Assembly: GCF_036365525.1 (NCBI RefSeq)
Contig: NC_090380.1
Span: 91,746,194-91,810,193 of the forward strand
DNA from: Heterodontus francisci
Taxonomy: Eukaryota
Length of the DNA: 64,000 nucleotides
Direction: 5' to 3'
Shown here: one piece after another, positions 3,179 through 54,719 of the stretch
Numbering within the stretch: position 1 is the first letter of the stretch
Layout: each line of letters opens with the position of its first letter
Program-made: the position numbers and the translations under genes
The notes under the pieces: generated by a model
Databases searched by the model: none
What the model was told of the DNA's origin: nothing
What the model saw: the letters and a program-made list of their open reading frames with translations, nothing else

Positions 3179-3658
3179 ACTAAACTGATCTCTGAGTCAG
3201 GTTTTGAACATAGTTTGTTTTGCTGGAAACTAATTCCCTGGAGCTTTTCTTTACATTGTTACTTGGAGCTGTTGCGGTATAAATTGCTCAAGGCTTGAGT
3301 CAGAATAAAGTCAAGGTGTTAAACAGCAGTTGTTTATACTCAAGAAAACAATCTATCGGAAGACTATAAATTGTATAAAGTGCATAGATGCAAATCTTGA
3401 AAGCTCTTCAGAAGGACATGCCAGTACAAAACTGTCTCTAGCTGCTCCTGAACATAAGAATGCTCTCTTACTTGCAGCTCCCCATCCTCCTCTATCCCCC
3501 AAAGTCAGACCACCCTCTCAAACAGTGCAATATCAACCAAATATCCAGTCAGATATAACGGGCCAAAAAAACACCAGAGGTTTTTCCTGTATTATGCTAT
3601 GCACTTTTAAAAATAAAACTAATGGGGGAGGAGTGAACACTGCCCCCAATTTTCTAAA

Positions 3659-8140: not shown

Positions 8141-8478
8141 CCCCAATTTTCTAAAGCGTTTTTAACTGTTGCAAAAGCTGGCAGTTTGCGGACAGGGAAA
8201 ATTGTTTCATTTAATTCTGTGCTCTTGTCTCTGATGATTGATCCTGTTCGTGTCAGCTGGTCTCCAGTTTCGATTTCCCATTTCGTAATTCATTTGCTCA
8301 GTTTCAGTTGACCTGACCTCACTTTGCGAGTCCGCTGAATCGGTATTTTGACGCTTTCCTCATTAATTGGAAGGCATTGCGATATATTTGAGGCACTTTT
8401 ATTGTTTAAAGGGAATTTGAGCTTTTTCCTCCGGTATAGTTAATTTTCAACTTTTTACTAACCCCGGGAAAGAAAAAA

Positions 8479-12900: not shown

Positions 12901-13156
12901 CAACCTAAGTCTTCGACAACATCAGCATACTCGTCGATTACATCATGTATAGTCTTCTCTACTCTCACCTGGTTAACTTTGTTCCAGGTCTGTGGGGTGT
13001 TTATCATAATCAATCCCATCTGGAATGATGTTTTTCTTGACAGAAGAGTCATCTGTTGCACATCCACTACATTGAATACATAGACTCACATCAAGTCACA
13101 CTCAAGGTCCCAAAGGACCCAGCAAATAAGTCATGTTCTACTCACATACCACAACA
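9974..13156 (-). mobile_element. Degenerate Gypsy-type LTR retrotransposon A
   Basis: TG...CA ends and gtcatc TSD (9968-9973, 13157-13162). LTR 9974-10183 with partial partner ~13080-13156. PPT next to 10184. RT/RNaseH fragments (11884-12360, 12720-13067) and integrase remnants. Confidence 0.85.
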
Positions 13157-18199: not shown

Positions 18200-20855
18200 T
18201 GTAATATTACTCATTCCTTTGGTATGTGAACTATTGTAAGATTCACAGGACTCCAAGATAACAACTAGAACTTAGCTACTGCAGGAGCCACACCAACACA
18301 CATCTCACACTGTCGGGCTACGCCCACAACTCCCTGGTCATGTGTGATGCAACATCACTTCCTCCGGTGACCTTCACTTACAGCCTCTGAAAGTGGTCCT
18401 CAAGATTGTCCCACAACATCCCCTTTTATTCCAAAGATAAAAATATGTACAATATACAATGATGTTGCAGCTCAGACTAACTATACATATTTAAAGCAAA
18501 CCGTTATTTATAAGTAAGTAAGTTTAGCACTCTCTAAAACGTAGAGGCGATTTGCTTATTCATCCCAAACTTGTTATCGTAAAATCTTCCCAAAGCTGAG
18601 CACGTCTTGACGACTTCTCTGAGACTCTGATGACTCAGATCTCTGGTTTGCATGTTCTTCCTTTGTGCTCACAGACTTAGTATATTCATCAGACTTTCTC
18701 TTTGAATGTGACCGCGATGCCACAGGGTTGTCACATGTAGCGTTGTTGTACAGCTCTCTGAGTTGACTTCAGTTGCATCTGAGAATCGCGCCATTTGGTG
18801 TCTGGACTTGGTAGGATCTGGGCTGGTTGTTCCCAACACATGATTAAGGACTCTGACTTTCAGTCCTGCTTGCAATCCGAGCTAATTCTGGTCCCGCTTA
18901 CTTGTCCTACAATGCCTTCTTCTTCCCTTCTTAGAAAGCTTAGAAAAATGATGACTGGCAACTTCACCAATCACTGGCAGTCCCACTGGCCTCAGGATAC
19001 TTGCTGCAACACATTGAAGCCCAAAGAGAGACTCCGGTCATATCACCTCTTCCTGTCACAACTCCCAGCCTTTGTGTAGTCCTTTACGTGGACTGACCCA
19101 ATACACTCGACCTGGATATTTTCCAGTATCTTCGATGCGTTAGTGACTTCATATATTGTGACAATTTGTAAATCTCAGCATGCTGGATGCCCTGCAACAG
19201 CTGGTCCAGTGGTGTCTACAATGTAAAACATTTGTGGAGGCCGTTCTGAGCTCCCATAGCTGCACTGCAAGGTTATCCTTCCAATGTACTTGATTGAAGA
19301 ACCATTGTAGGCAGTCAGCCTAGCCATGATGGGTCGCACCATAAATTCCCATATCTTTAAGTACACGTCCTTCACTATACAGATGAGCAAAATATTTGCA
19401 GTTGCTCCTGTGTAGATTTTTACTCTGAGCTTGTGCTTGACAGTCCTCTGTGCCTTACAATCCCGATCATGGCGAATGCCTCAGATTGCATAAAAGCATT
19501 GACATGATGATCCAAATTAACTATGTGAAATGCCTACTCGTTCTTTGTACGAGTGCATTCTTCATCCATGTCCTCCTGACAATCTGTCTCTCTGCTGACC
19601 CAGTGTACTGGTTTGGGCTTTTGTTGTGTGTTTGCCATATCTTTTGTTGCGTTTGCCATCCTGTCTTGCAGACGTTCTCTCTGCCACCATTCCTGTGTGC
19701 AGTATCTGAGCTCGACCTGCTGCACTGCCTTGCCTAATGTCCTTGCATGCCACAAACTTTACCCTGGTCCTGCTATGCCAGACAACTGCGAATTGGTTGA
19801 GTCAGGCCACATTTGCCATAAAGCTTAGCAGATTTCTGACTTGTGGTTACCATACCAATTGTGGTAGCCATCCCCAACACTTGTAACTATTGGCACTCAG
19901 CCATGATGGCTTCAAATTTCCTTCCATTATTAACTAGTGCATGTATGGTGTTCCCTTTCTTCATTTCTAGCAGGTCTTTTTGAAAGGCCTCTATTGGAGT
20001 AGACACACTCCAGAACCTGTTCGGACAATTCAATATCTGCGAAGTTGCATTCTTGAGCTTTGTCTTGGCACCTTGCAACAAACTGGTCAATGGACTTATC
20101 TTGCCTTTGCCAGTTGGTCATCAGCTCAAGCCTATATACCCGGAAATTGACCTTCATCTTGAGTTGCTCCTCTGGGATGTCCATAGCTTGCTAGGGTCCT
20201 TCTGATCCTCAGCTGACAATCCTGATGTGTTGATCCAAGCCCTCATTGCCCAGTGTGATTTTGATTTCACAGCTTGTTTCTCTGGTTTTCTCACTTCTTA
20301 ATCCAGGAAACACAGTTCCAACTGTTGTTGAAACAGTTTAAATTCAGGCGCTATGTCCGACACCTTCCAATCCATACTTGGATACCTGAAAGCCTTTTTC
20401 TGGGTAATCCTGCTTTTTATTTTACAAATGTAGGACTTTTCACAGGCTTTCTTTTTCACAGGCACAATTCTTTTACAGGCTCTCTGCTTTACATGTTTTT
20501 TGTCCTACAGGTAGAGCGTTCTATTTCCTATTTTAGACAGATTTGTTTTTGCAGACCTGTCCCTAAGAGTGAGGTAACAGCTGATTTCTTTGTTTACACA
20601 GCTTATTCAATTTTTTTAAAATGGAGAAAGCACCTTTCATTGCTTATACAAGCTGATTCATTTTTTAAACTGACAGATCAGTTTTTATCACTCTGCTGAG
20701 CTGTAGCTAGCAGTATTGGCAACTGCCACAACCAGTCTTTTGCTTTGTGCTGGACCTCCAGTGGCGCTGTTCAGCTGTTCCCGCTCTTTTTGGATTAGGC
20801 TCTGCCCATGAAGCAAAAAAAAGGGAAAACTACCTTTTAAGGTTGTCCCACAACA
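18200..20855 (-). mobile_element. Internally deleted Gypsy LTR element B (gag + protease + integrase tail, no RT)
   Basis: ggagg TSD (18195-18199, 20856-20860). LTR 18200-18418 plus PPT; only ~17 bp of the other LTR remains. Gag NFRVYRLELM and protease region at ~19175-19440. Confidence 0.85.
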
Positions 20856-22496: not shown

Positions 22497-23593
22497 GAGC
22501 CATCAGTGTCATTCTAAGCCATAGCCAAAGTGCAGAAGAATTGCTAAAACGCAGGAAGGTTGTGCGAGAGACAATATTGAAGTACTTAATCAAACATGAT
22601 GTAGTCATATCAGCTTCATCAGACAAACAGCAACTTATTAATAAGGCTTTGGTCTATTGGATATATCAAGAATGGAAGAGAAATGAGTCAACAGATCAAA
22701 CAAAATGCCAGCTTCTGGGGCAAGTTAGAAAACAAGATTTGGAGCAAAAGGTAACACAGGAAATTGAAAATACAAAGGTAGAAGCAATGGTACAAGAAGT
22801 CAAGGCAGCAAGGAGAGAATTGGAGCAAGCAAGACAAACAGAGGAGCAGCTGAGAAGACAAGTGGAAGAGCAGACAAGAAAACGAGTGGAGGAGCAGACG
22901 AAGAGGCGAGCAGAGGAGCAGTTGAGAAAACAAATGGAGGAGCAAACGAAGAGGCGAGCAGAGGAGCAGCTGAAAAAACAAATGGAGGAGCAGATGAAGA
23001 GGCGAGCAGAGGAGCAGCTGAGAAAACAAATGGAGGAGCAGACAAAGAGGCGAGCAGAGGAGCAGCTGAGAAAACAAATGGAGGAGCAGACGAAGAGGCG
23101 AGCAGAGGAGCAGCTGAGAAAACAGGTGGAAGAGCAGACGAAGAGGCGAGCAGAGGAGCAGCTGAGAAAACAAATGGAGGAGCAAACGAAGAGGCGAGCA
23201 GAGGAGCAGCTGAAAAAACAAATGGAGGAGCAGACGAAGAGGCGAGCAGAGGAGCAGCTGAGAAAACAGGTGGAAGAGCAGACGAAGAGGCGAGCAGAAG
23301 AGCAGCTGAGAAAACAAGTGGAAGAGCAGACGAAGAGGCGAGCAGAGGAGCTGCGGAGAAAACAAATGGAGGAGCAAACGAAGAGGCGAGCAGAGAAGCA
23401 GCTGAGAAAACAAATGGAGGAGCAGGCAAGGAAAGAAGAGGAGAAACAGATAAGACGAGCAGAGGAGCAGGCGGGAAGAGAATTGGAAGAGCAAATTAAG
23501 AGACAAGTGCAGGAGCAAATGATGAAACAAGAACAGGATGAGGCAAAGAGGCAGCTGGGAATACAAATGAATATACATTTAAATGTTACACAG
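22497..23593 (+). CDS. C3orf38: C3orf38-like copy 2, coding exon 2 (with charged repeat expansion)
   Basis: Acceptor ttgtag at 22496 is phase-compatible with exon 1. SQSAEELLKRRKVVRETILKYL matches C3orf38. Donor CAG|GTAATT, phase 0. Confidence 0.85.
22910..23437 (+). repeat. Coding minisatellite, 48-bp unit x ~11 (AEEQLRKQMEEQTKRR)
   Basis: Directly visible tandem repeat with an 8-aa sub-period. Confidence 0.95.
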
Positions 23594-23957: not shown

Positions 23958-26870
23958 TTAGAATTTAGAATTTAGATCATTACAGCGCAGTACAGGCCCT
24001 TCGGCCCTCGATGTTGCGCCGACCTGTGAAACCATCTGACCTACACTATTCCATTTTCATCCATGTGTCTATCCAATGTCCACTTAAATGCCCTTAAAGT
24101 TGGCGAATCTACTACTGCTGCAGGCAGGGCGTTCCACGCCCTTACTACTCTCTGAGTAAAGAAACTACCTCTCACATCTGTCCGATATCTATCACCCCTC
24201 AACTTGAAGCTATGTCCCCTCGTGTTTGCCATCACCATCCGAGGAAAAAGACGCTCACTATCCACCCTATCTAACCCTCTGATTATCTTATATGTCTCTA
24301 TTAAGTCACCTCTCCTCCTCCTTCTCTCCAACGAAAACAACCTCAAGTCCCTTAGCCTTTCCTCGTAAGACCTTCCCTCCATACCAGGCAACATCCTAGT
24401 AAATCTCCTCTGCACCCTTTCCATAGCTTCCACATCCTTCCTATAATGCGGTGACCAGAACTGCACGCAATACTCCAGGTGCGGTCTCACCAGAGTTTTG
24501 TACAGCTGCAGCATGACCTCGTGGCTCCGAAACTCGACCCCCCTACTAATAAAAGCTAACACACCATATGCCTTCTTAACAGCCCTATTAACCTGGTTAG
24601 CAACCTTCAGGGATTTATGCACCTGGACACCAAGATCTCTCTGTTCATCTACAGTACCAAGAATCCTCCCATTAGCCCAGTACTCTGCATTCCTGTTACT
24701 CCTTCCAAAGTGAATCACCTCACACTTTTCCGCATTAAACTCCATTTGCCATCTCTCAGCCCAGCTCTGCAGCCTATCTATGTCTCTCTGTACTCGACAA
24801 CATCCTTCGGCACTATCCACAACTCCACCGACCTTAGTGTCATCTGCAAATTTACTAACCCACCCTTCTACACCCTCTTCCAGGTCATTTATAAAAATGA
24901 CAAACAGCAGTGGCCCCAAAACAGATCCTTGCGGTACACCACTAGTAACTAAACTCCAGGATGAACATTTGCCATCAACCACCACCCTCTGTCTTCTTTC
25001 AGCTAGCCAATTTCTGATCCAAAGCTCTAAATCACCTTCAACCCCATACTTGCGTATTTTCTGCAATAGCCTACCGTGGGGAACCTTATCAAACGCCTTA
25101 CTGAAATCCATATACACCACATCCACTGCTTTACCCTCATCCACCTGTTTGGTCACCTTCTCGAAAAACTCAATAAGGTTTGTGAGGCACGACCTACCCG
25201 TCACAAAACCGTGCTGACTATCTCTAATGTACTTATTCTTTTCAAGATGATTATAAATCCTGTCTCTTATAACCTTTTCCAACATTTTACCCACAACCGA
25301 AGTAAGGCTCACAGGTCTATAATTACCAGGGCTGTCTCTACTCCCCTTCTTGAACAAGGGGACAACATTTGCAATCCTCCAGTCTTCCGGCACTATTCCT
25401 GTCGACAATGACGACATAAAGATCAAGGACAAAGGCTCTGCAATCTCCTCCCTAGCTTCCCAGAGAATCCTAGGATAAATCCCATCTGGCCCAGGGGACT
25501 TATCTATTTTCACACTTTCCAAAATTGCTAACACCTCCTCCTTGTGAACCTCAATCCCATCTAGCCTCGTAGCCTGAATCTCAGTATTCTCAACAACATT
25601 TTCTTTCTCTACTGTAAATACTGACGCAAAATATTCATTTAACACTTCCCCTATCTCCTCTGATTCCGCACACAACTTCCCACTACTATCCTTGATTGGC
25701 CCTAATCTAACTCTAGTCATTCTTTTATTCCTGATATACCTATAGAAAGCCTTAGGGTTTTCCCTGATCCGATCCACCAATGACTTCTCGTGTCCTCTCC
25801 TTGCTCTTCTTAGCTCTCCCTTTAGATCCTTCCTGGCTAGCTTGTAGCTCTCAAGCGCCCTAACTGAGCCTTCACGTCTCATCCTAACATAAGCCTTCTT
25901 CTTCCTCTTGACAAGCGCTTCAACTTCTTTAGTAAACCACGGCTCCCTCGCACGACAACTTCCTCCCTGCCTCACAGGTACATACTTATCAAGGACACGC
26001 AGTAGCTGCTCCTTGAATAAGCTCCACATTTCGATTGTTCCCATCCCCTGCAGTTTCCTTCCCCATCCTACGCATCCTAAATCTTGCCTAATCGCATCAT
26101 AATTTCCTTTCCCCCAGTTATAATTCTTGCCCTGCGGTATATACCTGTCCCTGCCCATCGCTAAGGTAAACCTAACCGAATTGTGATCACTATCACCAAA
26201 GTGCTCACCTACATCTAAATCTAACACCTGGCCGGGTTCATTTCCCAGTACCAAATCCAATGTGGCGTCGCCCCTGGTTGGCCTGTCTACATACTGTGTC
26301 AGAAAACCCTCCTGCACACACTGGACAAAAACTGACCCATCTAAAGTACTCGAACTATAGTATTTCCAGTCGATATTTGGAAAGTTAAAGTCCCCCATAA
26401 CAACTACCCTGTTACTCTCACCCCTGTCGAGAATCATCTTCGCTATCCTTTCCTCTACATCTCTGGAACTATTCGGAGGTCTATAAAAGACTCCCAACAG
26501 GGTAACCTCACCTCTCCTGTTTCTAACCTCAGCCCATACTACCTCAGTAGCCGAGTCCTCAAACGTCCTTTCTGTCGCTGTAATACTCTCCTTGATTAAC
26601 AATGCCACACCCCCCCCTCTTTTACCATCTTCTCTGTTCTTACTGAAACATCTAAATCCAGGAATCTGCAACATCCATTCCTGCCCCTGCTCTACCCATG
26701 TCTCCGAAATGGCCACTACATCGAGATCCCAGGTACCAACCCATGCTGCAAGCTCACCCACCTTATTCCGGATGCTCCTGGCGTTGAAATAGACACACTT
26801 TAAACCAGGTTCTTGCTTGCCAGTGCCCTCTTGCGTCCTTGTAACCATATCCCTGACCTCACTACTCTCA
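23958..26870 (-). mobile_element. Young CR1 LINE, 5'-truncated, intronic and antisense to the gene
   Basis: (ttctaaa)n tail at ~23958-23977 and uninterrupted ORF2. Confidence 0.95.
24041..26848 (-). CDS. CR1 ORF2: APE endonuclease + reverse transcriptase (935 aa, open)
   Basis: YFNARS, ISETW, GDFNFP, SDHN (EN); GVPQGSVLGP, FADDTK (RT). Confidence 0.95.
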   Translation of the reverse strand: MVTRTQEGTGKQEPGLKCVYFNARSIRNKVGELAAWVGTWDLDVVAISETWVEQGQEWMLQIPGFRCFSKNREDGKRGGGVALLIKESITATERTFEDSATEVVWAEVRNRRGEVTLLGVFYRPPNSSRDVEERIAKMILDRGESNRVVVMGDFNFPNIDWKYYSSSTLDGSVFVQCVQEGFLTQYVDRPTRGDATLDLVLGNEPGQVLDLDVGEHFGDSDHNSVRFTLAMGRDRYIPQGKNYNWGKGNYDAIRQDLGCVGWGRKLQGMGTIEMWSLFKEQLLRVLDKYVPVRQGGSCRAREPWFTKEVEALVKRKKKAYVRMRREGSVRALESYKLARKDLKGELRRARRGHEKSLVDRIRENPKAFYRYIRNKRMTRVRLGPIKDSSGKLCAESEEIGEVLNEYFASVFTVEKENVVENTEIQATRLDGIEVHKEEVLAILESVKIDKSPGPDGIYPRILWEAREEIAEPLSLIFMSSLSTGIVPEDWRIANVVPLFKKGSRDSPGNYRPVSLTSVVGKMLEKVIRDRIYNHLEKNKYIRDSQHGFVTGRSCLTNLIEFFEKVTKQVDEGKAVDVVYMDFSKAFDKVPHGRLLQKIRKYGVEGDLELWIRNWLAERRQRVVVDGKCSSWSLVTSGVPQGSVLGPLLFVIFINDLEEGVEGWVSKFADDTKVGGVVDSAEGCCRVQRDIDRLQSWAERWQMEFNAEKCEVIHFGRSNRNAEYWANGRILGTVDEQRDLGVQVHKSLKVANQVNRAVKKAYGVLAFISRGVEFRSHEVMLQLYKTLVRPHLEYCVQFWSPHYRKDVEAMERVQRRFTRMLPGMEGRSYEERLRDLRLFSLERRRRRGDLIETYKIIRGLDRVDSERLFPRMVMANTRGHSFKLRGDRYRTDVRGSFFTQRVVRAWNALPAAVVDSPTLRAFKWTLDRHMDENGIV

Positions 26871-27135
26871 TTCTTAAGTATTTACATTCCTGATTCAGAA
26901 TTGATAAAATATTTTGATTCAGGATGCTACCTAGTTATCTAAAATTGGTGTTTATTGAAACTTATCTTGTTACTTCATCAGTGCTTTCTTTATTAAAGGA
27001 CAGTTTTCCAAATTATCCTCATAAAATCAGACATACGTGCATGATTAATGCCAGCTTGGAAAAGTAGACGCCCGCTTTTCCAAATACACCAAAATGTATC
27101 GAGTAGTTTCCCGTAGAGAATATCGATTCTGGGCT

Positions 27136-27680: not shown

Positions 27681-28202
27681 TTTATTCCCTGTGCATTCCT
27701 GTGCATAAAACTGCCATCTTTCTTACATACCATAGCAACCTATTTCCTGATAAAGGAGGATTTCTGATTTTGAAACCTGAGCAATGGTCTGCGTATAGCT
27801 GAGTAGTAATGCAGAAGATATCAGCATTCCAAGCTCCAGATAGTCTGGTGGTGTGTTATGTTCTTTGCCTTTCTAATGATTTGAGTTTTATCCTATCATT
27901 TTCAGTTTAGTGTTGAGTAGATGCCCATGTTCCTTGGAGAGCTAGGAGAGAAAGCTTTATTTACATTTTCCAGATTTTCAGTCCTCTCAGGTTGTAGCTA
28001 AATTTCCTCTATATTCACAACACAGTCATTGGTGTGGATTACAACCATTAATTCTGAGCAAGAAGATAGGACAATGGTGCAATGTCCTTCTTTCATTCCC
28101 TACACAGTACATCTTTTTAGCCTTAACTATATTTATCTTTGCTGTTATTTTGTATGTTTTTCTAATGATCTGACTTTATTGTTGTTCCTTAAAACCCTCC
28201 AG

Positions 28203-28760
28203 TACCAGGTACCACCTCAGACAGCAACAGGGGGAGACTTTGACTGCCAAATAATAGGAGAGGCATTCTGCCATTGGTTCTTTGTTCTTCTGAATTCCCA
28301 GAATCCTTCGTTTGGCCGACAGCCAGAAGAGTGGGGTCCACAGCACTTTTGGGATGATGTAGTCTTTCACTTTGCTTATTCTGTTCATGAAGACCGAAGA
28401 GAGCAATATCAGAGTTCAGAATTGGTCAGTCAGCGCTTGCTGTACCTGGTGAAGGATGAACAACTGCTCTTTAATCCCAACATCAGTATGAATGGCATGA
28501 GATGTGCAACTTCTCCACATGGAATAGTTGCTATAGCAGTGGCTGGCACCATTCATAAGAACTCGCAGTGCCTGGGTATTTTTGAGCAGCTCTTTGGACT
28601 GATCCGTACACCAGTTGGTGGAAACAACTGGAAAATCAAATATGTTAACCTTCAGGTGAAAGCTTTGAATGATCAGCAGGAAATTATCCAACCCAGTTTA
28701 TCTATTGAGCTGCCTGCACTACAGGCCCATCTCAATGAATTAAGTGTATTTCTCATGTAA
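28203..28760 (+). CDS. C3orf38: C3orf38-like copy 2, terminal coding exon
   Basis: Acceptor AG at 28201-28202, phase 0 (alternative in-frame AG at 28207-28208). GEAFCHWFF...WGPQHFW...CLGIFEQLFGLIR. The three-exon join gives ~592 aa. Confidence 0.88.
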   Translation, partial: YQVPPQTATGGDFDCQIIGEAFCHWFFVLLNSQNPSFGRQPEEWGPQHFWDDVVFHFAYSVHEDRREQYQSSELVSQRLLYLVKDEQLLFNPNISMNGMRCATSPHGIVAIAVAGTIHKNSQCLGIFEQLFGLIRTPVGGNNWKIKYVNLQVKALNDQQEIIQPSLSIELPALQAHLNELSVFLM

Positions 28761-36548: not shown

Positions 36549-38050
36549 AGGGGTAGGGGTTCTTCGCGCTGCTGAGTGGTCAGCTGAGAGTGATTAGAGT
36601 ATACTAAGTATTTAAATTAGCTGACCTCATCTTGCAAGGGGAGGTAAACTTTGAGTACAGTATTTCTCTTTCTGCTTGATGCAGACTAAGTTAGTGAAAT
36701 GAGCATCGAATCAGCCGCAACAGCTGATTGATATCACAATGAGACCTCTCCTGATGCTACCGGTACGTGCATGGCACACCAGCACTAGCAACCTGTTCAG
36801 CATGGGGTGCCAGGCGAGACAGTGGTCGGTAGTGCAGCCCACGCCATTTTATGGCTTCGGGGTACCCGCACCAGTGGAGCCCAAAATTGGAGCCATATAA
36901 AGAGAAGGATACAGTGGCACACTACCGGAAATCTTTCTCATTTCTTTTTATGGTCAATAAATCACTGCAGCTTTTTATCATTTATTACTGGGGAATAATC
37001 TATTCACAGCGAAGAAATATTAGCAGACGAGCAGAAACCCACAAAACATTTGTGTTGAAATTAATATCTATCACAACAGTACTTCTTTAAGTACAGGATT
37101 TCTGATTATTCTTTCACTAAAGAATTTAACAGAATCAAAACTTCTCACTCTGGAAAAAGCTACATAAAATTGTCCATGTGTAAAGCAGACCTAGGAATAT
37201 AAATATAAATTTTGGCCTTGTGACTTTTTTATAGTCAGAGAATATGAATGTCTAATTGGGAGTTGGAAAGGTAGGTTTACATCTGATGGACTCAATATTA
37301 TTTGAGGAATAAACACTCTATTTCCTTGAAATATGCTTGTTATAATTTCAGCATCTATCATGGAAGAAAACAGCTTCCTAACTACCAATTTTAGAGTCAT
37401 TTACGGCACAGAAGAAGGCCATTCAGCCCATCGAATCCATAACAGCTTTCCACAGAGCGATGCAGTCAGTTCCACTCTTCCACTCGATTCCCGTAGGCCT
37501 GCAAGTCTATTTCTTTCAGGTAGCCATTCAACTTCCTCTTGAAGTCATTGATTGTTTCCACTTCCACCAGCCTTGTGGACATTACCATTTGCTGCATAAC
37601 ATAGTGCTTCCTCATATTCCCCCCTGCATCTTTTGCCCAAAACTTTCAATCTGTGTCCCCTAGTCCTTGTACCATTAGTTAATAGGAACAGCTTTTCCTT
37701 GTCTAACTTATCTACCTGTCATAATCATGTGCACTTCTATTAACCTCTTTTGTTCTAAGAAGAACAAGCCCAGCTTTTCCAACCTAACCTTTTTTGTGTG
37801 ATTGCCTTTAAAAGTGGTGTCCCTTTAAGATCTTAATATGACAATAAGCTAAGTACCAGGATGTTGTCATGTGACTACATGCCAGTCTCACTCTGCTACT
37901 GTAACATCTAGAAACAAGTCATGTAAATAGTTAGCTCTGCATTGTATATACTTGTTAGCTGTTCATAAACCTGTTTGAGATCTTCAATCAACTGGACTCC
38001 ATGCATCTCATTTATGTTGCATCAGACAACATAAAAAGCTTCTCATTACA

Positions 38051-38066
38051 TGGTGGCATGTGGTGA
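38051..38066 (+). promoter_or_regulatory. Primer-binding site, probably a degenerate tRNA-Leu type
   Basis: tggtggcatgtggtg directly after the 5' LTR resembles TGGTGGCAGCGGTGG. Confidence 0.6.
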
Positions 38067-40112
38067 GAAGACAGAATCCAAGATTGAAGACCACAGGAAA
38101 ACAACTTTAAAAACTACCTGCAGCTAAAGGACAGTATGTTAAAAGAAACACTGGCCCAAACAGTGTAAAGAAGAAAAAAAAAACTCAGTTCCAGCTATAG
38201 AAGACAGAGCTGAATGACAGGCTACAAATCAATCACTGTGAGCAGGTGAGTCAGTCTCCTGTCGGTACATGAACCTCAGATGAAATAAAAGCTTTGAGGT
38301 GCTTGCAAAGTTATTTTTTGTAAAAAGGCTCAATAAAAGAAAAAAACAGGAAAACCCAATCCCTATCTCAGGCTGATTGCAAATTTTCAAAGGTTTCCCC
38401 AGGCTGATCAGGTCTGCACCATTACAGGAAGTGCCCAACAGCAAAAAACACGAGAATCCTCCATTCACACAGCTCACAGCTAGAGCTATAGATAGAAATT
38501 AATTTAATAACTTTAATGCTGAAGAGCTTTCATTCATTCAGTCCCAGTTTTTAAAAAAACTCATAAAGCCCTCAAGCATGAAGATTGTCTCTTGAACGGC
38601 TGTATAAACAAACCCAAGTTTTAAAAAGCACTTGAAATGCCTATTGTACAGCTGTGTAAACAGACAGGCTAGAGTTCTGGAAGCTAGATAAACAGACAGG
38701 CTGCTCCTGTCAATCAAACCAGCCAGTCTAAAGAAGATAATTTTTTTAAAAAGGGAAAGCAGTACAGAGTCACAGAAGCAAGTTCTTAAAGAAAGTTTCA
38801 AAGTAAAAGGACAGCAGGGAAATGGGTAACGAATTTCCTAGCATGAACTGGAAAGCCTTGGATATCCTATCCGAGTTCAAACTGTTCCAACGGAGAATGC
38901 AATTATGTTTTATAGAGCAAGTAATTGCAGAACCAGAAAAATAGGCTGTAAAAATAATGATAGCAATTGGAAATGAGGGATTTCATAGAATCAATACCTC
39001 TGGATTATCTGAACAGGACTAGAAAGATCCCACAAATATATGGAAAGTGCTGGAAGATCAGCTCAGATTGAGAGTGAATTTTTGAATTCACCGCCTGGAA
39101 TTGATGTCCTACAGGCAACAGCCACAGGAATCAATAGACCAGTTCATCAGCAGATGCTGTAGTAAGGACAACAAATGGAACCTTTCAGAAGTTGAGCTGT
39201 CACACTGAATAATGGAGCTGGTGATTGCATCAACACTCATTGAAGTGTTCCAGAAAGACCTCTTGGGGGAAAAAGGAAAAGTCACAGCACTGCTGGAAGA
39301 TGGCAGGAAATATGAAGCTATTGTAGCTGGCCAAAAACTTCTACAAGCTCTAGGTGCAACCAGCAGTATCGGCACATAATCAGGTCAAAAAGAGTAAGCA
39401 AGCTGTGTGGTAAATGTGGTCTGTCCCACTCATGGCAAAATTGTCTTGCATTTTGAGACCTGTGCAAGGCATGCAGGGCAAAAGGACACTGGCCCCGCCT
39501 ATGCAGGAATTCTGGCTCCAAAGATGCAGCCAGAAGTCACAGTAAAACACAAACAAACAGAAAACAGGGCAACCATAGCAAGGAAAGCATCACAGCCCTG
39601 CATAAACACAAACCAATTCAAGAGGTCACTAGCGAAACAGACCTGAGGCAAGACCCAGAGAGAAGATGAACAGGCATTCCACATTGTGAACCTAACACAT
39701 CACATTGATGAAGTCCAACAACTGGAAGCTTTCACCACTATTAACATCATGTGCCCAAAGAAAGCTAGAAAACATACACGCAAGGTCAAGATTGACACCA
39801 GTGCTAGTGCAAATATCCTACCAGTCCAAATCCTCAAAGATATGTACCGGAGTTGTCGGAAATCAATGATACAACTGACAACTGCCAAGTTATCTGCATG
39901 CAACGGGTCACCCATCCCTTGCAATGGCACATTAACAATGTAATGCAGATATGGCAAGTCGGCATGGAAACCACAAATGTTCTACCTGGTAGACACGAGC
40001 GAACCAGCAGTGGCAGGACTACCAGCGTGTAAGGACCTCAACACCATAACTATCCACAAGAGCATTGCCAAAGAGAAAATCTCCTACGACCGGAACCTGA
40101 TCGCAGACTCTG

Positions 40113-40202
40113 ACCAGCATCAGATGGTGAAATCTGGAAACCCAACAACAGCACAAATATGCCGTGCCTTCACTTCTGCTCTCTAGAGAATTGCTAGCAC
40201 CA
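40113..40202 (+). pseudogene. myc-like: Captured Myc-family fragment, part 1 (Myc box IV)
   Basis: Frame starting 40143 reads QQQHKYAVPSLLLSRELLAP, preceded by IRW*NLET; compare Myc/N-Myc/L-Myc KRCH..HQQHNYAAPS. Confidence 0.75.
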
Positions 40203-41053
40203 CCAGTGTGATTTGGACAGGTTGAGTAAGCGGGTAAATACATGGCAGATGCAGTATAATGTGGATAAATGTGAGGTTATCCACTTTGGTGGCAAAAACA
40301 GAAAGGCAGATTATTATCTGAATGGCGATAGGTTGGGAAAGGGGGAGCTGCAGTGAGACCTGGGTGTCCTTGTGCACCAGTCGCTGAAAGTAAGTATGCA
40401 GGTGCAGCAGGAGTTAAGAAGGCAAATGGTATGTTAGCCTTCATAGCGAGAGGATTCGAGTACAGGAGCAAGGATGTCTTGCTGCAATTATACAAGGCCT
40501 TGGTGAGACCGCATCTGGAATATTGTGTGCAGTTTTAGTCCCGTTATCTGAGGAAGGATGTTCTTGCTATGGAAGGAGTGCAGCGAAGTTCACCAGACTG
40601 ATTCTGATGGCAGGACTGACATATGAAGAGAGATTGGGTCGATTAGGCTTGTATTCGCTGGAGTTTAGAAGAAAGAGAGGGGATCTCATAGAAACCTAAA
40701 AATTCTAACAGGACTGGACAGACTAGATGCAGGAAGGATGTTCCCAATAGTGGGGGAGTCTGGGACGAGGGTTCACAATCGAAGGATAAGGGGTAAGCCA
40801 TTTAGGACTGAGATGAGGAGGGATTTCTTCACCCAGAGAGTGGTGAACCTGTGGAATTCTCTACCACAGAAAGCAGTTGAGGCCAAATCATTAAATATAT
40901 TTAAGAAAGAGTTAGATATAGTTCTTAGGGCTAAAGGAATCAAGGGATATGGGGAGAATGCGGGAACAGGGTACTGAGTTTGGACGATCAGCCAAGGTCG
41001 TATTGAATGGCAGTGCAGGCTCAAAGGGCCTGCTCCTATTTTCTATGTTTCTA
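40203..41053 (+). mobile_element. CR1 3' fragment inserted into the captured myc sequence
   Basis: LDRL..WQMQYNVDKCEVIHFG...[12 protein letters not shown] and a ttctatgtttcta tail. Confidence 0.9.
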
Positions 41054-41394
41054 CAATGAGACAGAATGGACAGATATTTCCATGAGGCCAAGTCCTGCTC
41101 CCCCAAAAAGTCCTCGAACTTGAGCCCAAGCCTTCTGACGAAGAGGATGTGGAGAGGCAAAGGAGACACAATGTCCTGAAGAGGCAGAGGAGGAATGAGT
41201 TGAAGCATTGTCTGTTGGTTCCTTGAGATGAGGTGCCAGAACTTTCCAAGAATGACAAGGCCTCAAAGGTGGTCATCTTGAGAAAAGCAACAAAGTATGT
41301 TAGCAGGCTGAAGGCAGAGCAACAGAAACTGAATGCAGAGAGGGAGAAACGGCAGAAAGAACAGCAACAGGTGAGACGCAAAGTCCCCGAGCAA
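41054..41394 (+). pseudogene. myc-like: Captured Myc-family fragment, part 2 (bHLH-leucine zipper)
   Basis: Frame from 41131 reads [83 protein letters not shown]. Compare Myc [42 protein letters not shown]. Stop at 41224 is CGA>TGA-like. Confidence 0.93.
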
Positions 41395-42638
41395 GAGTCG
41401 TCAGACCACTGATATATGGACTTTTGAGCCTCTATATTTGTAAAATTTCACAATCGCAATCCATGTGTAAATAATTTTGATGTTATCTAATTTTATGTAT
41501 TTTTACTTTTAGCATACGAGACTTATCTTTGGAAAGAAGGGGGATGTTGTGCCTTTGAGAGTGATGTCGCTTTAAGATCTTAATATGATAATGAGCTAAG
41601 TACTAGGATGTGGTCATGTGACTACATGCCAGTCTGGCTCTGCTATTCTAACTCTTGGAGGCAAGTCATGTAAATAATTAGCTCTGCACTGTATATACTT
41701 GTTAGCTGTTAATAAACCTGTATGAGATCTTCAATCAACTGAACTCCATGCATCTCATTTATGTTGCATCAGACAACATATAAAGCTTCTCATTACAACC
41801 TTGTAATTAAAATCCCCCATCCCTGGAAGCATTCTGGTAAATCTCCTCTGAAACCTCTCAAGGATCCTGACATCCTTCCTGAAGTGTGGTGACCAGAACT
41901 GGATGCAAAGCTCCAGTTGGGGCCTAGCCAGAGCTTTATAGAGGTTCAGCATAACTTTGCTGCTTTTGTACTCAATGTCTCTATTTATGAAGACCAAGAT
42001 CCCATAGGTTTTACTAACCACTCTCTCAATTTGTCCTTCCACCTTCAAAGATCAATGCACATGCACCCCCACGTCCCTCCGTTCATGCACATTCTTTAGA
42101 ACTGTGCCATTAAGTATATATATTGCCTCTCCCTATTCCTTCTGCCAAAATGCATCACCTCACACTTGTCTGTATGAAATTCCATCTGCCACCTCTCTGC
42201 CCATTCTGCTAGCCTATCTATGTCCTGTTGCAGGCAGTTCATATCATCCTCACTATTTGCCTCATCTCCAATTTTGGTGTCGTCTGCAAATTTTAAGATT
42301 CTACTCTGTATTCCAAGATCCAAGCCATTTATATATAGCAAAAAGCTTGTTCCATGACAAGGTCCTTGTTTAGGATTCAAGTTTCATAGCAACATCATAA
42401 CTGTTCCTTCCTTGAGTCTAAGTTTGTGCAGTGGCATACCCATTGGAGTTAGGCGGTGTAGCGCCTCTGGAGGGTATTTATTGTCATCATATTATTCGTC
42501 TATATAGGAACATAAGAAATAGGAGCAGGAATAGGCCATTCGGCCTCTTGAGCCTGCTCTGCCATTCAACTAGATCATGGCTGACCTTCTATCGCAACAC
42601 CATTTTCCTGCACTATCCTCATATCCCATGATAACTTT

Positions 42639-43368
42639 TGTTGGCCAGGGGCTGTAAGAAACACAGAATCGGTTACAAAGTGCTGGGATTGTTTGACCTG
42701 TAGTAACCTGGAGCTCGGACACAGGCCTGTGCTGGTAAAAACCAGTTTGAACTAATTACTTTATGGGACAAGACAAAGAACAGGACACAGGAAAAGGGCC
42801 TTATTTGGACACGGTGTGATACCGGGGTCTTTGGGCCTGGGCCAATTAAGAGAAGCTGTGAACGAGGTGATCAAGCTTAAGCCAACCGGAAAGACACAGC
42901 TCAGATTTGCAGAGATAAGCAACAGGATAAGAATAGAGCTTTTTGGGCATAGAGCCAGCGAAAACTCCGGAGATCAACCATCGTGGATGCGGAAGACCCT
43001 GCATGAGTGACGCGGCGACGACGTAGAAGAGAGAGAGAGGGAGGGAGAGAGAGAACGGAACGCCTGGCCAGCGTTAACTCTCCCTTTTTCGGGTAATATC
43101 CTTTGTATTCTGTGACTAGGACAGGGAAAGGTCAGAGAAACCTAGTGGGTGTGCTTATGAATTCTAGCTAGTTTTGTTATTAACTGTATAACTCAGGGGA
43201 GTTGTATGTTTTTGTCTAACTAAGTGTATAAGCCTTATTCTTACATGGTACAACAATGTGAATAAAGTAAATTGATAGTTAAAGAAAGGACTGAGTTCCC
43301 CCTCTTTGTACTAAGCCAGTGACTGTAGCTGTGGACAAGGGGGAGTTGACTCCGCTCCACGGTTAACA
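42639..43368 (+). mobile_element. Solo LTR (730 bp)
   Basis: TGTT...AACA ends, cttt 4-bp TSD (42635-42638, 43369-43372) and AATAAA at 43261. Confidence 0.8.
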
Positions 43369-43415
43369 CTTTAATATCTAGAAATCTATCCATCTCTGTC
43401 TTGAGCATACTCAAT

Positions 43416-47300: not shown

Positions 47301-48584
47301 AAGCCCTCCAATGAGCATCTCCTCAAATATTCATTTTAAAATGCACCATGTATGTTGGGGTTCTTTTAAAGGTTAAAAGAAACAATAATTATAAGGCTGA
47401 TGAAAGCGCAGCTTCCACTCCCAACTTTCACTGCAGTAGTGATGAGTGCAGGGGAAACGCTATAGCAAAATCTTGTCCAGTTTTTAGGCCTGACTTTGGA
47501 AATGCACCATAAATGAGGACACAATGCCAACCTCTGCTCAGTCAGCTGAGATAGTGTAACTTTATTGAAACATTTTTCCAGCAAGGAATACATCCATGTG
47601 GTTTTTAATACAAAGTTATGGCATTGTCAGGGTTTAATTTTAGGATGAGTAGTTTAGGATAGGCCAGTGCAGAGCTTTGCTCTGATGTATTTCTTTTAAA
47701 CAGAGAATGGTGCTGCAAATGTACATCATAGATATCCCCCTTTGTTGATTTGTGGTTACATGCCCCTAGTTAAGCAGTAGCAATATAGGACTGAATTTTC
47801 CCAGCCCACTGGAGATGAGGTTGGAGGCGGTGGGGGGTGGTGTTGTGGGGGAAATAGGGGAGTGCTGCGTCCGGATGGTTCCCTGACACATTCCCACCTC
47901 TGGGGAACTTGCCAGGATGCGGAAGAAAGTCAGCAGCCTGCTCCAATAAGGCAGGCAGCCAATTACACGGCTTAAGTAACAAATTAGGGACTATTTTCTG
48001 ATGGAGATGGCATCTTACCACCTTCAGAGTGGGACTCTGCCGTGTGGGAAGCGCACCAGCTCTCAAGAGGCGGCCTCCTGGCAACAGGACAGGAGGCCAT
48101 CGATGCCTCCTTTAAATCCACTCCCCCACTTCCTGGAACCTCCACAATGATGGCCTGGCAGCTGTGGCTACACTGAATTTTAACAATTTAAGAAATCTTC
48201 AGAGGGCACCTTGATCTTGAGGTGCCCTGGTGGCCTCCCACCTACATCGGCAGCAGCTACCTTTCCCATTGGGTCTGCTGGCTGCCCACAGCCTCAGGCA
48301 CTCCAGTTGACACTCCTGCCTTGCCCAACCTGTATTGAGAAGCTTTTTGTTGTCTGATGCAACATAAAATGAGATACGTGGAGTTCAGTTGCTTGAAGAT
48401 CTCAAACAGGTTTATTAACAGCTAAAAAGTATATACAGTGCAGAGTTAACTATTTACAGAACTTGCCTCTTAGTGTTACTCAGGCTCTGAGTCACATGAC
48501 TGCATCCTGGTACTCATCTCATTAGCATACTAAGATCTTCAGGGCCAACATGTTCCCGTAAAGATGAAGTGTAGGACCAACAAG

Positions 48585-49655: not shown

Positions 49656-51770
49656 TCCAGGGAACCCTGGATGTCAAGGGATATAGAGGATTGGATAAGG
49701 AAAAAAAGGAGGCTTATGGCAGATTCAGAGGGCTGAAAACAGCAGAGTCCCTAGAGGAGTATAGAAAGCGTAGGGGGGGTACTTAAAAAAGTAATTAGGA
49801 GAGCAAAGAAGGTGCATGAAAAAACACAGGCAGGCAAGATAAAGGAAAATCCCAAGGTGTTTTATAAGTATATTAAGGGTAAGAGGATAACCAAGGAAAG
49901 AGTAGGGCCCATTAGGGACCAAAGTAGAAATCTGTATGTGGTGCGGGAGGAAGTAGATGAGGTTTTAAATGATTACTTCTCCATAGTGAACAAATTATAT
50001 GACACAAATTTTCAAATCCTCTCTTGCCACAGGAGTGGTGCCAGAGGACTGGAGGACAGCGAATGTGGTACCATTATTCAAGAAGTGTAACAGGAATAAA
50101 TCAAGTAATTACAGGCCAGTGAGTCTAACATCAGTGGTAGGGAAACTACTGGAAAAAATTCTGAGGGACAGGATTAATCTCTACTTGGAGAGGCAGGGAT
50201 TAGTCAAGGATAGTCCGCATTGCTTTGTCCATGGGAGATCATGTCTAACAAACTTGATTGAATGTTTCGAGGAGGTGACTAGATGTGTAGATGAGGGTAA
50301 AGCAGTTAATGTAGTCTACATGGACTTCAGTAAGGTTTTTGATAAGGTTCCACAAGGGAGATTGGTTAAGAAGGTAAGAGCCCATGGGATCCAGGGCAAT
50401 TTGGCAAATTGGATCCAAAATTGGCTTAGTGACAGGAGGTAGAGGGTGATGGTCGAGGGTTGTTTTTGTGAGTGGAAGCCTATGACCAGTGGTGTACGGC
50501 AGGGATCAGTGCTGGGACCCTTGCTGTTTGTAGTGTACATTAATGATTTAGACGTGAATATGGGAGGTATGATCAGTAAGTTCGCAGATGACATGAAAAT
50601 TGGTGGTGTTGTAAATAGTGAGGAGGAAAGCCTTAGATTACAGGATGACAGGCTGCTAAGATGGGCGGAGCAGTGGCAAATGGAATTTAATCCTGAGAAG
50701 TGTGAGGTGATGCATTTTGGGAGGACTAACAAGGCAATGGAATATACAATGGATGGTAGGACCCTAGGAAGTACAAGGGTCAGAGGGACCTTGGTGTACT
50801 TGTCCATAGATCACTGAAGGCAGCAGCACAGGTAAATAAGGTGGTTAGGAAGGCATATGGGATACTTGCCTTTATTAGCCGAGGCATAGAATATAAGAGC
50901 AGGGAGATTATGATGGAGCTGTATAAATGCTAGTTAGGCCACAGCTGGAATAGTGTGTACAGTTCTGGTCGCCACACTATAGGAAGGGTGTGATTGCACT
51001 GGAGAACGTACAGAGGAGATTCACCAGGATGATGCCTGGGCTGGAGCATTTCATCTATGAAGAGACACTGGAAAGGCTAGGGTTGTTTTCCTTAGAGCAG
51101 AGAAGGCTGAGGGGGGACCTGATTGAAGTATACAAAATTATGAGGGGCATAGATAGGGTAGATAGAAAGAAACTTTATCCCTTAGCAGACGTGTCAATAA
51201 CCAGGGGGCATAGATTTAAGGTAAGGGGCAGGAGGTTTAGAGGAGATTTGAGGAAAGATTTTTTCACTCAGAGGGTGGTTGGAATCTGGAACACACTGCC
51301 TGAAGGGGTGGTAGAGGCAGGAACCCTCACAACATTTAAGAAGTTTTTAAATGAGCACTTGGAACGCCATAGCATACAAGGCTACAGGCCAAGTGCTGAA
51401 AAATGGGATTAGAATAGATAGGTGCTTGATGGTCATCACCGGTATGATGGGCTGAAGGGTAAAGGTGTGCAAAGGAAACCCGACCCCAGTCCGAATGTCA
51501 GACCCGGAAGCCCGACATGACCTGGCCCGAACCCGACATGTGTTGTCGGATCCCGTCAGGGTCGGGTCGGGTTGGGTAGTAGGTCTTTACATCAGTATAT
51601 GGGTAAAGGCCCATTACCCGACCCGACATCGACGGGTCCCGACGACCTGTGTCGAGGTCGGGCTGGGTTGGGTCGAACTTCTGGGTCCAGCATTCAGGCT
51701 CGGTTGGGTTTCCTTTGCACACCTTTACCGAAGGTCCTGTTTCTGTGCTGTATAACACTATGACTCTATG
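49656..51770 (+). mobile_element. Degenerate CR1 within the LTR of D
   Basis: NYRPVSLTS, FADDMK, RGDLIEVYK and a ctatgact tail. Confidence 0.88.
51460..51727. mobile_element. hAT-type MITE
   Basis: 21-bp TIR taaaggtgtgcaaaggaaacc, 8-bp near-TSD ctgaaggg/ccgaaggt and internal (acccg)n repeats. Confidence 0.8.
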
Positions 51771-54719
51771 ACATCGCTCTTAAAGGCAATCACACAACAT
51801 TCCCATTCTTTCCAGCGATAAGACTTGCATACTAAAAGCAAAACTTATAACATTAGATAACATCAAAATTATTTACACATGGATAGAAATTGTGAAGCTT
51901 ATCGATATAAAGGCTTATGAGACCATCTATCGTTTCGGTGGTTTGACAACTCTTCCAGATCTGGTTATGGTATTACCTTCTGGGGATGTGGATTTCACCC
52001 TTGGCTGTCCTGGGTTTGCAGGCATGTTGTTGGCGTTGGTTGCCGTCCTGTTGATTTGTCACACCCCGACTGTCAGAGTGTGCTCCCTCAAGTCCGCCGT
52101 GCGCAGTTGGAGTGCTGCAGAGCTCTCTCAGTTGGCTTCGGTTTCTTCTCAACACTGCTCAGCTAGATGTTGTAATCTCATAGGACCTAGGCCCACCGCA
52201 CATGGTGGACACCTCTACAGGCAATCATGTATTCATTGTGGGGTGTATGACCTTGACCTTTTGTCCTCTGAGTAGCTGAGGTAGTTGCACCGCTGCGTGT
52301 CGGTCATACACCATCTTAATTCCCCCCTGCTTTTCGAGCAGTGTCTCAAGAATTTGGACAGATGATGGCTTGGCAGAGTCATCCGCACTTCTCTGCCAAA
52401 CATGATCTCTGCTGGTGATGGTTAGCCCATATCCATTGGTGTAGCTCTGAGGTGGAGCATGGCAATACAAAGACTTTGTTTCATTATCCTACACTTTAGG
52501 ATAAGTGCTTTGACTGTGTGGACCATTTGCTTGGTGAGACCATTAGACCTAGGGTAATGTGGTGAGGACGTCACATGGTTTATGCCCCATTTGGCACACA
52601 CATCCCTGAAAGGTCTGCCCGTATACTGTGGCCCATTGTCAGAAATGATTTCTTCAGGTGCACCAAATAGACTGAATATGGCACTCAATGTGTCTGTGAT
52701 GCCCACGCTTGAAGTGTCTTTTACCTGTCTGACAATTGGAAATTTGGAAAAATAATCAGTGATTAAGATAAAGTCGTCTCCGTTAATGGAAAATAGGTCA
52801 GTGGTGATTTTGGACGAAGGGACTGATAGAATCCCGTGAGGGTGTAGAAGTTCATTGTGTTGTTGTGGCTGGTAGCTCTGGTGTGCCTCACACATCCTCA
52901 CGAACCTTTCAATGTCATTATTGATCCTTGGCCAATAAAAAGTGTTCCGTGCCAGTCATCTTGTTTGCTCTATGCCCATATGGCCTTGGTGAAGTTGTAA
53001 CAAGATGCCCTCTCGGAGAGCTTTGGGCACAATCACTTATTTTCCCTTGAAAGTGACGCCTCTCGAGATACCGAGTTCATCTCTGTAAGGCCAGAAGCAT
53101 CTGAGGGTTTCTGGCATCTCTTTTATCATATCAGGACATCCTTCTATGACGACTTTCCACAGTGCTTTCAGTTGTGGGTGATTTGGTATTTCTGATTGTA
53201 GTTGGTCACATTTGTACTGATCAAAATGCAATAAATTGATTTTGAGCACATCTTCCACCTCGATGTCCATGCTGTCTATTTTTAGATCCAGTGGAACTTC
53301 TTCATTCTTGTTCTGATTTGGCAATCTGCTCAGCATATCTGAGGTGACCATTTTGGTACCTGGTTTGTAGCAGATGTCGAAGTCATACCCCTGTGCTTTC
53401 ACTAAGAGTCGCTGTAGTTGAGGTGGTGCGCTTGTCAATGGTTTGCACCAGATCACCACCAGTGGTTTGTAGTCAGTTTCCACAGTGAACTGCTTACTGA
53501 ACAGATAGGTATGGAACCTTGTGATCTCAAACACGAGACCAAGTGTTTCACGCTCTATATTTGAATAATTGGATTGTGCTGAGGATAAACATTTGGACCT
53601 GAGTACAGTTGGTTTGCCATCCTGGAGGATACATGCTCCTCGCCCTTTCTGTCAGATGTCGACTTCCAGGATGGTCTTTTTCTTTGCATCATTGTACTGC
53701 AGGGTACAGGTTTCTGCTGACGATGCTTGTTTGAGAGACTCAAACATATGCTGATGGTCCTCCTGCCATACATATGCTACGTCTTTTTTTAAGAGCTCTC
53801 TCAGCGATGCTGCTTTGTCTGAAAAATTTGGAATGTATGGTGCCAGGAAGTTGAAAAATCCAAGACATCTCTGGAGATCTTCCTTGTCTTGTGAGTAGGC
53901 ATATGTTTTATATTGTTGACTTTGCCTGGGTCAGGACGGATTCCACAACCAGAATAGATGGAGCCAAAGAAATTGATCTGACTTACATTTACCTGGCACT
54001 TCTTGCTGTTAAAAAGGAACGCTTCGCGACAAGCTACTGCCATCGGTGATAGAAGATTTTGATTATGTTCTTCTTTGGTTTTTGCCTATTACCGCAATGT
54101 CATCGGCAATTCATTGCAGCCAGGCACATTTTCTATAATTCTGTCCATGTGCTGCTGAAACAGATCCTGACTGACAGATAAGCCGAAGGGTAGTCTTTGG
54201 AAGCAGTATCGTCCAAATGGTGTTCTGAAAGTGGTGACGTCCTGAGATTCCTTAGCTAGGTGTACCGACCAATATCCATGTTTAGGATCCAACTTGGAGA
54301 AGTATTTGGCTCCTGTGAATTGGGGTTCAGTTCAAAAACTCAGGCTCCAAGTCACACGACTGTGTCATGGCACTTAGCTCATTAGCATACAAAAATCTTA
54401 AAGGAACATTTCTCTTAAAGGCAATCACACAACACAGACCGCCCGCCATCCCTAATTGGATGGGGCTCCTGTGTGCTGGTAGTAAATAAGAAAGACATAT
54501 GAGAAAATCAGTTGATAGGGATAAAAGATGACTCAATATATTCTTTTTTCTTGATCTACATTGGGGTCGGGACCCGGATATGGTTCCAATGCCTGCCAGA
54601 AAATCCATCTCATAGAGTCCCTTTCAAAACTTAACTGTCTTTCACCTATTCTTTTGATCCTGACACTCCAGTTTTTTTCTATCCCAAACATAAATATTGG
54701 ATGTTTGTGCCATTTATAG

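Follow-up and report, generated by a model that had tools for sequence, protein, structure and literature searches.

An LTR retrotransposon of the horn shark, Heterodontus francisci, carries a spliced piece of the host gene mych in place of pol, and it is present in the genome assembly (G000) in at least 1,771 copies belonging to three nested forms, A, B and C. One of these copies, hereafter element C, lies in the window, that is, the whole 64,000-nt stretch of DNA that we analysed and to which all coordinates refer. We consider that a helper-dependent element with mych as a passenger is the best reading of the data, with a probability of about two in three. According to this reading, a Ty3/gypsy-type element would have packaged spliced mych mRNA, and its reverse transcriptase (RT) would have switched to that mRNA close to the RT start, through a 7-nt microhomology, and returned through a 6-nt microhomology within integrase, generating form A. 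The resulting chimera, which would have kept the LTRs, primer-binding site (PBS), gag, protease and PPT and lost nearly all of pol, would have spread non-autonomously through the RT and integrase of pol-bearing relatives and recombined with these relatives in shared particles. Further deletions would have led to forms B and C, the window copy being a form C, with the integrase remnant shrinking to 8 nt. The myc piece would ride along without amino-acid selection, its open frame being perhaps kept for the RNA or for Gag-Pro translation.

Element C occupies positions 37792-41797, with two LTRs 90% alike and, as the initial annotation had proposed, a clean TSD, a perfect ACCTT on both sides. Its parts are the following:

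37787-37791, + strand: left 5-bp TSD (ACCTT), from sequence
37792-38050, + strand: 5′ LTR, a direct repeat 90% identical to the 3′ LTR (K2P 0.114)
38051-38068, + strand: putative primer-binding site, starting with TGG, the same motif being found in other copies
38819-39676, + strand: decayed gag, from position and codon-position conservation, with a CCHC-like knuckle
39677-40060, + strand: decayed aspartic protease, from a DTSA motif read by eye
40061-40203, + strand: first part of the captured mych (host codons ~196-242), with an MBIV-like QQHxYA
40204-41052, + strand: CR1-type LINE fragment inside the captured mych, a later insertion in the window copy only
41053-41384, + strand: second part of the captured mych (codons ~243-353), with bHLH and zipper
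41379-41384, + strand: true 3′ capture junction, a 6-nt microhomology between host mych and integrase, in frame in both
41385-41392, + strand: 8-nt integrase remnant, from ~400 nt upstream of the integrase end
41393-41544, + strand: secondary deletion join, last integrase codons, 3′ UTR and PPT (41531-41544)
41545-41797, + strand: 3′ LTR, a direct repeat of the 5′ LTR
41798-41802, + strand: right TSD (ACCTT), from sequence

The gag of the window copy is interrupted by stops and frameshifts, and a Pfam search with the gag and the protease of element C gave no match for either. The element is colinear with pol-bearing copies as far as 40060; the form-C 5′ junction follows at 40061, where the protease frame is continued in 26 of the 36 form-C copies measured. 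The CR1-type LINE fragment was absent from the same site in the 29 other copies compared. The bHLH matches Pfam HLH with an E-value of 3e-8, and its basic region, which starts at 41167, carries a Lys at 41179-41181 at the place of the Glu that reads the E-box in the host protein. Past 41393, the last integrase codons are read by the myc ORF in another frame, up to a stop at 41410-41412. Immediately downstream of the element, in a SINE/LINE tail, there is an LTR-like stretch (42640-43370) with TGT...ACA ends and an AG-rich tract that is unrelated to the LTR of element C.

The window also contains a pol-bearing relative, element D, with these parts:

54350-54434, - strand: truncated 5′ LTR, joined straight to RT, from sequence comparison
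51935-54340, - strand: decayed RT (RVT_1), RNase H and integrase (H2C2 and rve), from domain matches
51770-51934, - strand: 3′ UTR, PPT and first 30 nt of the 3′ LTR, from the alignment to element C
48331-48539, - strand: probable rest of the 3′ LTR, its continuity being deduced from LTR colinearity

Around 3.2 kb of later insertions separate the two parts of the D 3′ LTR. The initial annotation had aligned element C, from 41395 on, with the reverse complement of D over the last integrase codons and the 3′ UTR, and had assigned their LTRs to one family. A two-sequence comparison agreed with this description: window 41393-41568 matched the reverse complement of 51954-51770 with 76% identity over 187 nt (E 6e-35), in an alignment that starts at 41393 and spans the end of integrase (GRVVKPPKR stop), the 3′ UTR, the PPT and the start of the LTR, and the LTRs of C were 77-82% identical to the LTR pieces of D. 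The domains of D are arranged in the order RVT_1, RT_RNaseH, Integrase_H2C2 and rve, and in pol-bearing copies a protease motif is found immediately upstream of the RT start. LTRs with TG...CA ends, PBS, PPT and a short TSD are present in the family, and an exact 5-bp TSD was recognised in three of the five other myc-bearing copies in which both ends could be identified. In all 12 locatable copies among the 21 pol-bearing copies sampled, the distance from the integrase end to the PPT was 133-172 nt, leaving no room for env between integrase and the 3′ LTR. A 121-aa RT piece matched an 'enzymatic polyprotein', foamy-type Pol and Ty3 chains, with no orthoretroviral RT among the matches. On the basis of the lack of space for env and of these RT matches, we treated the family as Ty3/gypsy-type (Metaviridae-like). 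Other decayed gypsy-type pol/protease pieces are found at 11884-13085 (- strand), 18412-18440 and 19175-19480 (- strand), and in one of them the protease and PPT are weakly like those of C.

A search of the genome with Myc_N returned 118 matches among the 119 scored of 1,624 candidates. Three of them are two-exon cellular genes, namely a c-myc-like gene (L063, on C5), an N-myc-like gene (L064, on C3) and mych (L065, on C16); no L-myc-like gene was seen among the 119 scored candidates. The other 17 matches that were fetched were all element copies, and most of the remaining matches appear to be element copies as well. The part of the L065 protein that was searched is identical to P0001, the horn shark protein named myelocytomatosis oncogene homolog (mych). 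Host mych was ~85-91% identical to the copies at the DNA level over the whole captured piece, whereas c-myc and N-myc, which reached 68-69% over ~135 nt only, were discarded as donors. At 13 sites host mych differs from at least four of five other sharks; the copies agreed with the host at six of these sites and with the others at four, three being ambiguous, which indicates a capture that is not recent but took place within the lineage leading to the host. The join between exons 2 and 3 was crossed without the 1.7-kb intron in 67 of the 78 longer (A and B) copies. The captured piece starts at mych codon 115 or later, past MBI and MBII (boxes placed by eye from their motifs); the roles of the Myc boxes are described in the available part of PMC7780693.

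We then classified 144 distinct copies, from 145 loci fetched, one of which was without a myc match. The 5′ junction lies at mych nt 345, within the start of RT, in form A (36 copies), at nt 382 in form B (42 copies) and at nt 585, at the protease end, in form C (64 copies); two of the 144 copies fit no form. In form A, mych codons 115-353 thus stand in for nearly the whole of pol. The initial annotation had suggested looking for microhomology between pol and myc at both breakpoints, and it was found at the capture junctions, with an exact 7-nt pol/mych identity at junction A and 6 nt within integrase on the 3′ side. Junction B displays a 9-nt microhomology with one mismatch, and junction C one of ~1 nt. 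By comparison, random position pairs share at least 7 nt in ~0.06% and at least 6 nt in 0.2% of cases. In all forms the exit from myc occurs at nt 1058, the 6-nt microhomology being followed by further partial likeness, and the same 3′ junction was found after myc in 102 of the 105 readable copies across A, B and C (39 of the 144 were not covered). Taken together with the intronless exon join, the 7- and 6-nt microhomologies argue for an RNA-level capture by template switching.

In 16 pol-bearing copies, 393-411 nt separate the 3′ switch point from the downstream stretch that corresponds to the one starting at 41393 in element C, and some form-A copies keep this integrase spacer wholly or in part, with ~398, 177, 80 or 65 nt. 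In contrast, only the ~8-nt remnant is left in 52 of 64 form-C, 28 of 42 form-B and 6 of 36 form-A copies. The spacer of the form-A copies identifies 41384/41385 as the capture junction, 41385-41392 as what remains of integrase and 41393 as the site of a later deletion. The join at 41393, without clear microhomology, was consequently ruled out as the capture junction, which lies 8 nt upstream. The earlier proposal that myc replaces pol from the protease to the end of integrase with all cis signals in place was correct with regard to the cis signals; the capture itself ended ~400 nt further upstream in integrase. The 5′ junction of form C is also secondary, since the longer forms retain the RT start and 240 nt more of myc. 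We infer a single origin and the order A, then B and C. The order is based on nesting and not on a tree, because bootstraps were unsettled in both the gag-pro and the myc trees and the latter did not contain clades corresponding to A, B and C. One locus, L089, has a 1.5-kb RT-RNaseH-integrase stretch directly upstream of a form-C protease-myc junction and is possibly a recombinant or a nested copy.

Copies were counted in the assembly with junction-specific patterns allowing at most two mismatches. The form-C 5′ junction gave 1,152 matches (control 1), in line with the earlier suspicion that the myc-bearing form is multi-copy, and forms B and A gave 433 and 187, the latter including the host gene and so amounting to 186 (controls 0-2). 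A pol-only integrase pattern gave 1,347 matches. The sensitivity of the four patterns on sampled copies was 21/26, 8/12, 28/36 and 18/21, which suggests totals near 2,300 for myc-bearing and 1,600 for pol-bearing copies; these are probably low, because the copies used for calibration were well preserved. A 24-mer from the bHLH was dropped as a count marker (826 matches only), most copies differing from the host there. Thus, of the two observations that would have spoken against a mobile defective element, a junction present once and a lack of relationship between C and D, neither was made.

The element had been proposed to be mobilised in trans by D-family copies. Element D itself can be discarded both as the helper and as the nearest relative of C, as its 5′ LTR stops after ~85 nt and jumps into RT, so that it is without gag and protease, and it ranked 8th among 21 pol-bearing copies by likeness of its 3′ UTR to that of C. 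Mobilisation by pol-bearing relatives in general is supported by three kinds of data. Copies are dispersed and have LTR pairs and some TSDs. The LTR-LTR distances are alike, with a median K2P of 0.151 in form C (n=10) and 0.145 in pol-bearing copies (n=8) and medians of 0.12-0.15 overall (n=2, 4, 10 and 8), which indicates that helpers were active in the same period. Finally, on a gag-pro tree built from the gag end and protease (59 rows of 96 available), pol-bearing copies are scattered among forms A and B without a cluster of their own (10 changes for 11 rows, with rough support) and form three starred pol-B pairs, as would be expected if co-packaged RNAs had recombined. These sequence comparisons are consistent with complementation by helpers, as we infer. 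Dating with the epaulette-shark pedigree rate of 7e-10 per generation given in the available part of PMC10587355 was rejected, as the resulting ~80-110 million generations are not credible in years. Form-C junctions were also bridged by contigs of two other organisms (X5, records 12 and 16; X8, records 19 and 25, the last right at the 31-letter limit), and the family therefore appears to be common to close relatives. Run X11 contained one myc-like contig only; the absence of coverage beyond the myc part is in itself uninformative. Small word shares in other runs were disregarded, as the query included a LINE.

At all four myc junctions, three on the 5′ side and one at the 3′ capture site, myc is in frame with gag-pro or integrase, a coincidence of ~1 in 81 by naive chance, and the distance from the protease to MBIV was divisible by three in 14 of 22 form-A, 14 of 27 form-B and 26 of 36 form-C copies. 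Single copies carry ~3-4 breaks each. The recurrent stops, seen in as many as 29 of 61 copies, are located at CGA codons (CpG decay); none of the three forms has a fixed stop or frameshift. Of the form-diagnostic sites, 35 of 53 in gag and protease (p 7e-8) were third codon positions, versus 8 of 23 in myc (Fisher p 0.022 between the two). With gag-pro as the positive control, this test indicates that gag-pro has been constrained, partly via exchange with helpers, and that myc has not. A raw hint of purifying selection on the myc piece, with N/S of 1.14 (form B) and 1.23 (form C) for mid-frequency versus ~3.1 for rare variants, was rejected, as the signal was gone when linked variants and transition/transversion strata were used (0-44 linked sites, of low power).

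The available part of PMC6337544 names three basic-region residues, His, Glu and Arg, as those that read the bases of the E-box. Glu285 is kept in 9 of 29 form-A, none of 33 form-B and 1 of 57 form-C copies (10 of 119 overall), and the change was found in no shark mych. His281 was lost after Glu285, form A having His+Glu, His+Lys and Arg+Lys in turn, and Arg288/289 were retained in ~90% of the copies. Two of the three DNA-reading residues would be hit by 10-15 lineage changes spread over 237 codons with a probability of 0.5-1%, calculated post hoc. The changed basic region is also carried by P0008, an NCBI model named 'myc proto-oncogene protein-like' that is a form-B copy with half of the protease and mych codons 128-353 in one frame; it was the one protease-myc fusion among 114 candidates in a fusion search.

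Four in-frame junctions, no fixed breaks and the loss of DNA-reading residues represent more order than a pure passenger needs. Selection to disarm the captured protein could account for it: the element would have translated a Gag-Pro-Myc from which the protease released a bHLH-Zip without transactivation boxes, this dominant negative would have interfered with Myc/Max and harmed germ cells, and copies unable to bind E-boxes, with Glu and then His lost before the largest bursts, would have been favoured. The stepwise loss of Glu285 and His281 with the arginines kept, the in-frame junctions and the greater abundance of the forms without both residues all fit such a scenario, as does the fact that 12 of 13-15 changes on the element lineage hit sites invariant in six sharks, versus 58% expected (p 0.009-0.07). 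However, these tests are post hoc and involve ~15 changes, and the excess is inflated because a change at a variable site was credited to the host lineage as soon as the same state was present in another shark; the RNA nature of runs X5 and X10 is a guess, and the shorter forms may have won by shortness alone. We regard this scenario as unlikely, at around one chance in five. If true, it would be the mirror image of v-myc, a selfish element selected to disarm a captured proto-oncogene, with ~2,000 fossil copies.

Much less probable is that the captured Myc benefited the element, by promoting proliferation of the host cell or by activating the LTR and thereby driving amplification. The layout resembles that of gag-myc viruses, the frame is kept, myc-bearing matches outnumber those of the pol marker and the LTR contains an E-box-like CATGTG, but one such hexamer per 260 nt is the chance expectation, MBI and MBII precede codon 115 and were never captured, and the forms that have spread most have lost DNA-reading residues. 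The contrast between unconstrained myc and constrained gag-pro largely refutes this idea. A similarly low probability applies to independent captures of mych at hot-spot microhomologies, each giving rise to one form. The near-perfect microhomology at junction B and a myc tree on which the forms are not nested as clades could be read in this way. In contrast, all forms have one 3′ junction in common and share the Glu285 change, B and C share changes at codons 233, 243 and 281, and the 8-nt integrase remnant is common to B and C and already occurs in some form-A copies. All in all, a passenger mych in a helper-dependent element remains our preferred reading.

Oncogene capture is known from tumour retroviruses, in which defective viruses are mostly dead ends; LTR-mediated retrocopies are known as rare events of low copy number. 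In the gag-myc retroviruses (the avian MC29 group and FeLV-myc), a spliced proto-oncogene replaces replication genes in frame with gag and a helper is needed. Element C shares with these acutely transforming v-myc viruses the in-frame gag-onc fusion and the dependence on a helper, but it is an env-less Ty3/gypsy-type retrotransposon fixed in the germline and not an infectious retrovirus, its donor was mych and not c-myc, it is without transactivation boxes and without selection for Myc function, and it has lost DNA-reading residues. TR-GAG-like and internally deleted LTR elements keep cis signals and gag, receive pol in trans and can outnumber autonomous copies; in the present family, pol is replaced by in-frame host coding sequence and not merely deleted. 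Helper-dependent oncogene viruses such as SSV are treated in the available part of PMC13297096. The LTR-mediated retrocopies described in the accessible part of PMC5131818 likewise contain a partial spliced mRNA in an internal ORF between two retained LTRs, show ~6 nt of microsimilarity at both switch points and undergo further non-autonomous rounds, but they are young and occupy one or a few sites, whereas here the nested forms add up to ~1,800 copies or more, with an in-frame Myc-family cargo and gag-protease kept. In maize Bs1 and human HERV-K/FAM8A1, host mRNA is also found in an LTR element with switch points common among copies; according to the same portion of that source, Bs1, with three donor genes, is present in one to five copies, FAM8A1 is represented by a single pseudogene, and neither involves a proto-oncogene.

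In the mostly open literature we found no report of an LTR retrotransposon with a myc cargo from sharks or fish, and an annotation in repeat databases is possible. The mechanism is a known one: it agrees with LTR-mediated retroposition and resembles oncogene transduction by retroviruses. A high-copy germline capture of a Myc-family gene in a vertebrate was not encountered in the literature searched. The capture is heritable and as abundant as the helper family, and the nested forms record capture, deletion, recombination with helpers and decay in one genome, so that questions on oncogene transduction (RNA-level capture, microhomology at junctions, what selection acts on once a gene has been captured) become accessible to tests with thousands of natural copies. 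The family is of importance for annotation too, as Myc-domain searches in this genome return more than 100 element copies, at least one of which (P0008) is annotated as a myc gene.

Other features were observed in the window. Two inverted elements with RT and GIY-YIG-like domains, which we take to be Penelope-like, occupy 3658-8150; their arms are 97-99% alike and they have long open frames of 570 and 420 aa. A coding 24-nt tandem repeat with ~21 registers at 22697-23560 belongs to a 412-aa coiled-coil-like ORF, which is flanked by two related exon-like ORFs (426-1043 and 28002-28760). Lastly, a CR1/L2-type LINE at 24041-26881 (- strand) has a 946-aa open endonuclease-RT frame and is apparently young.
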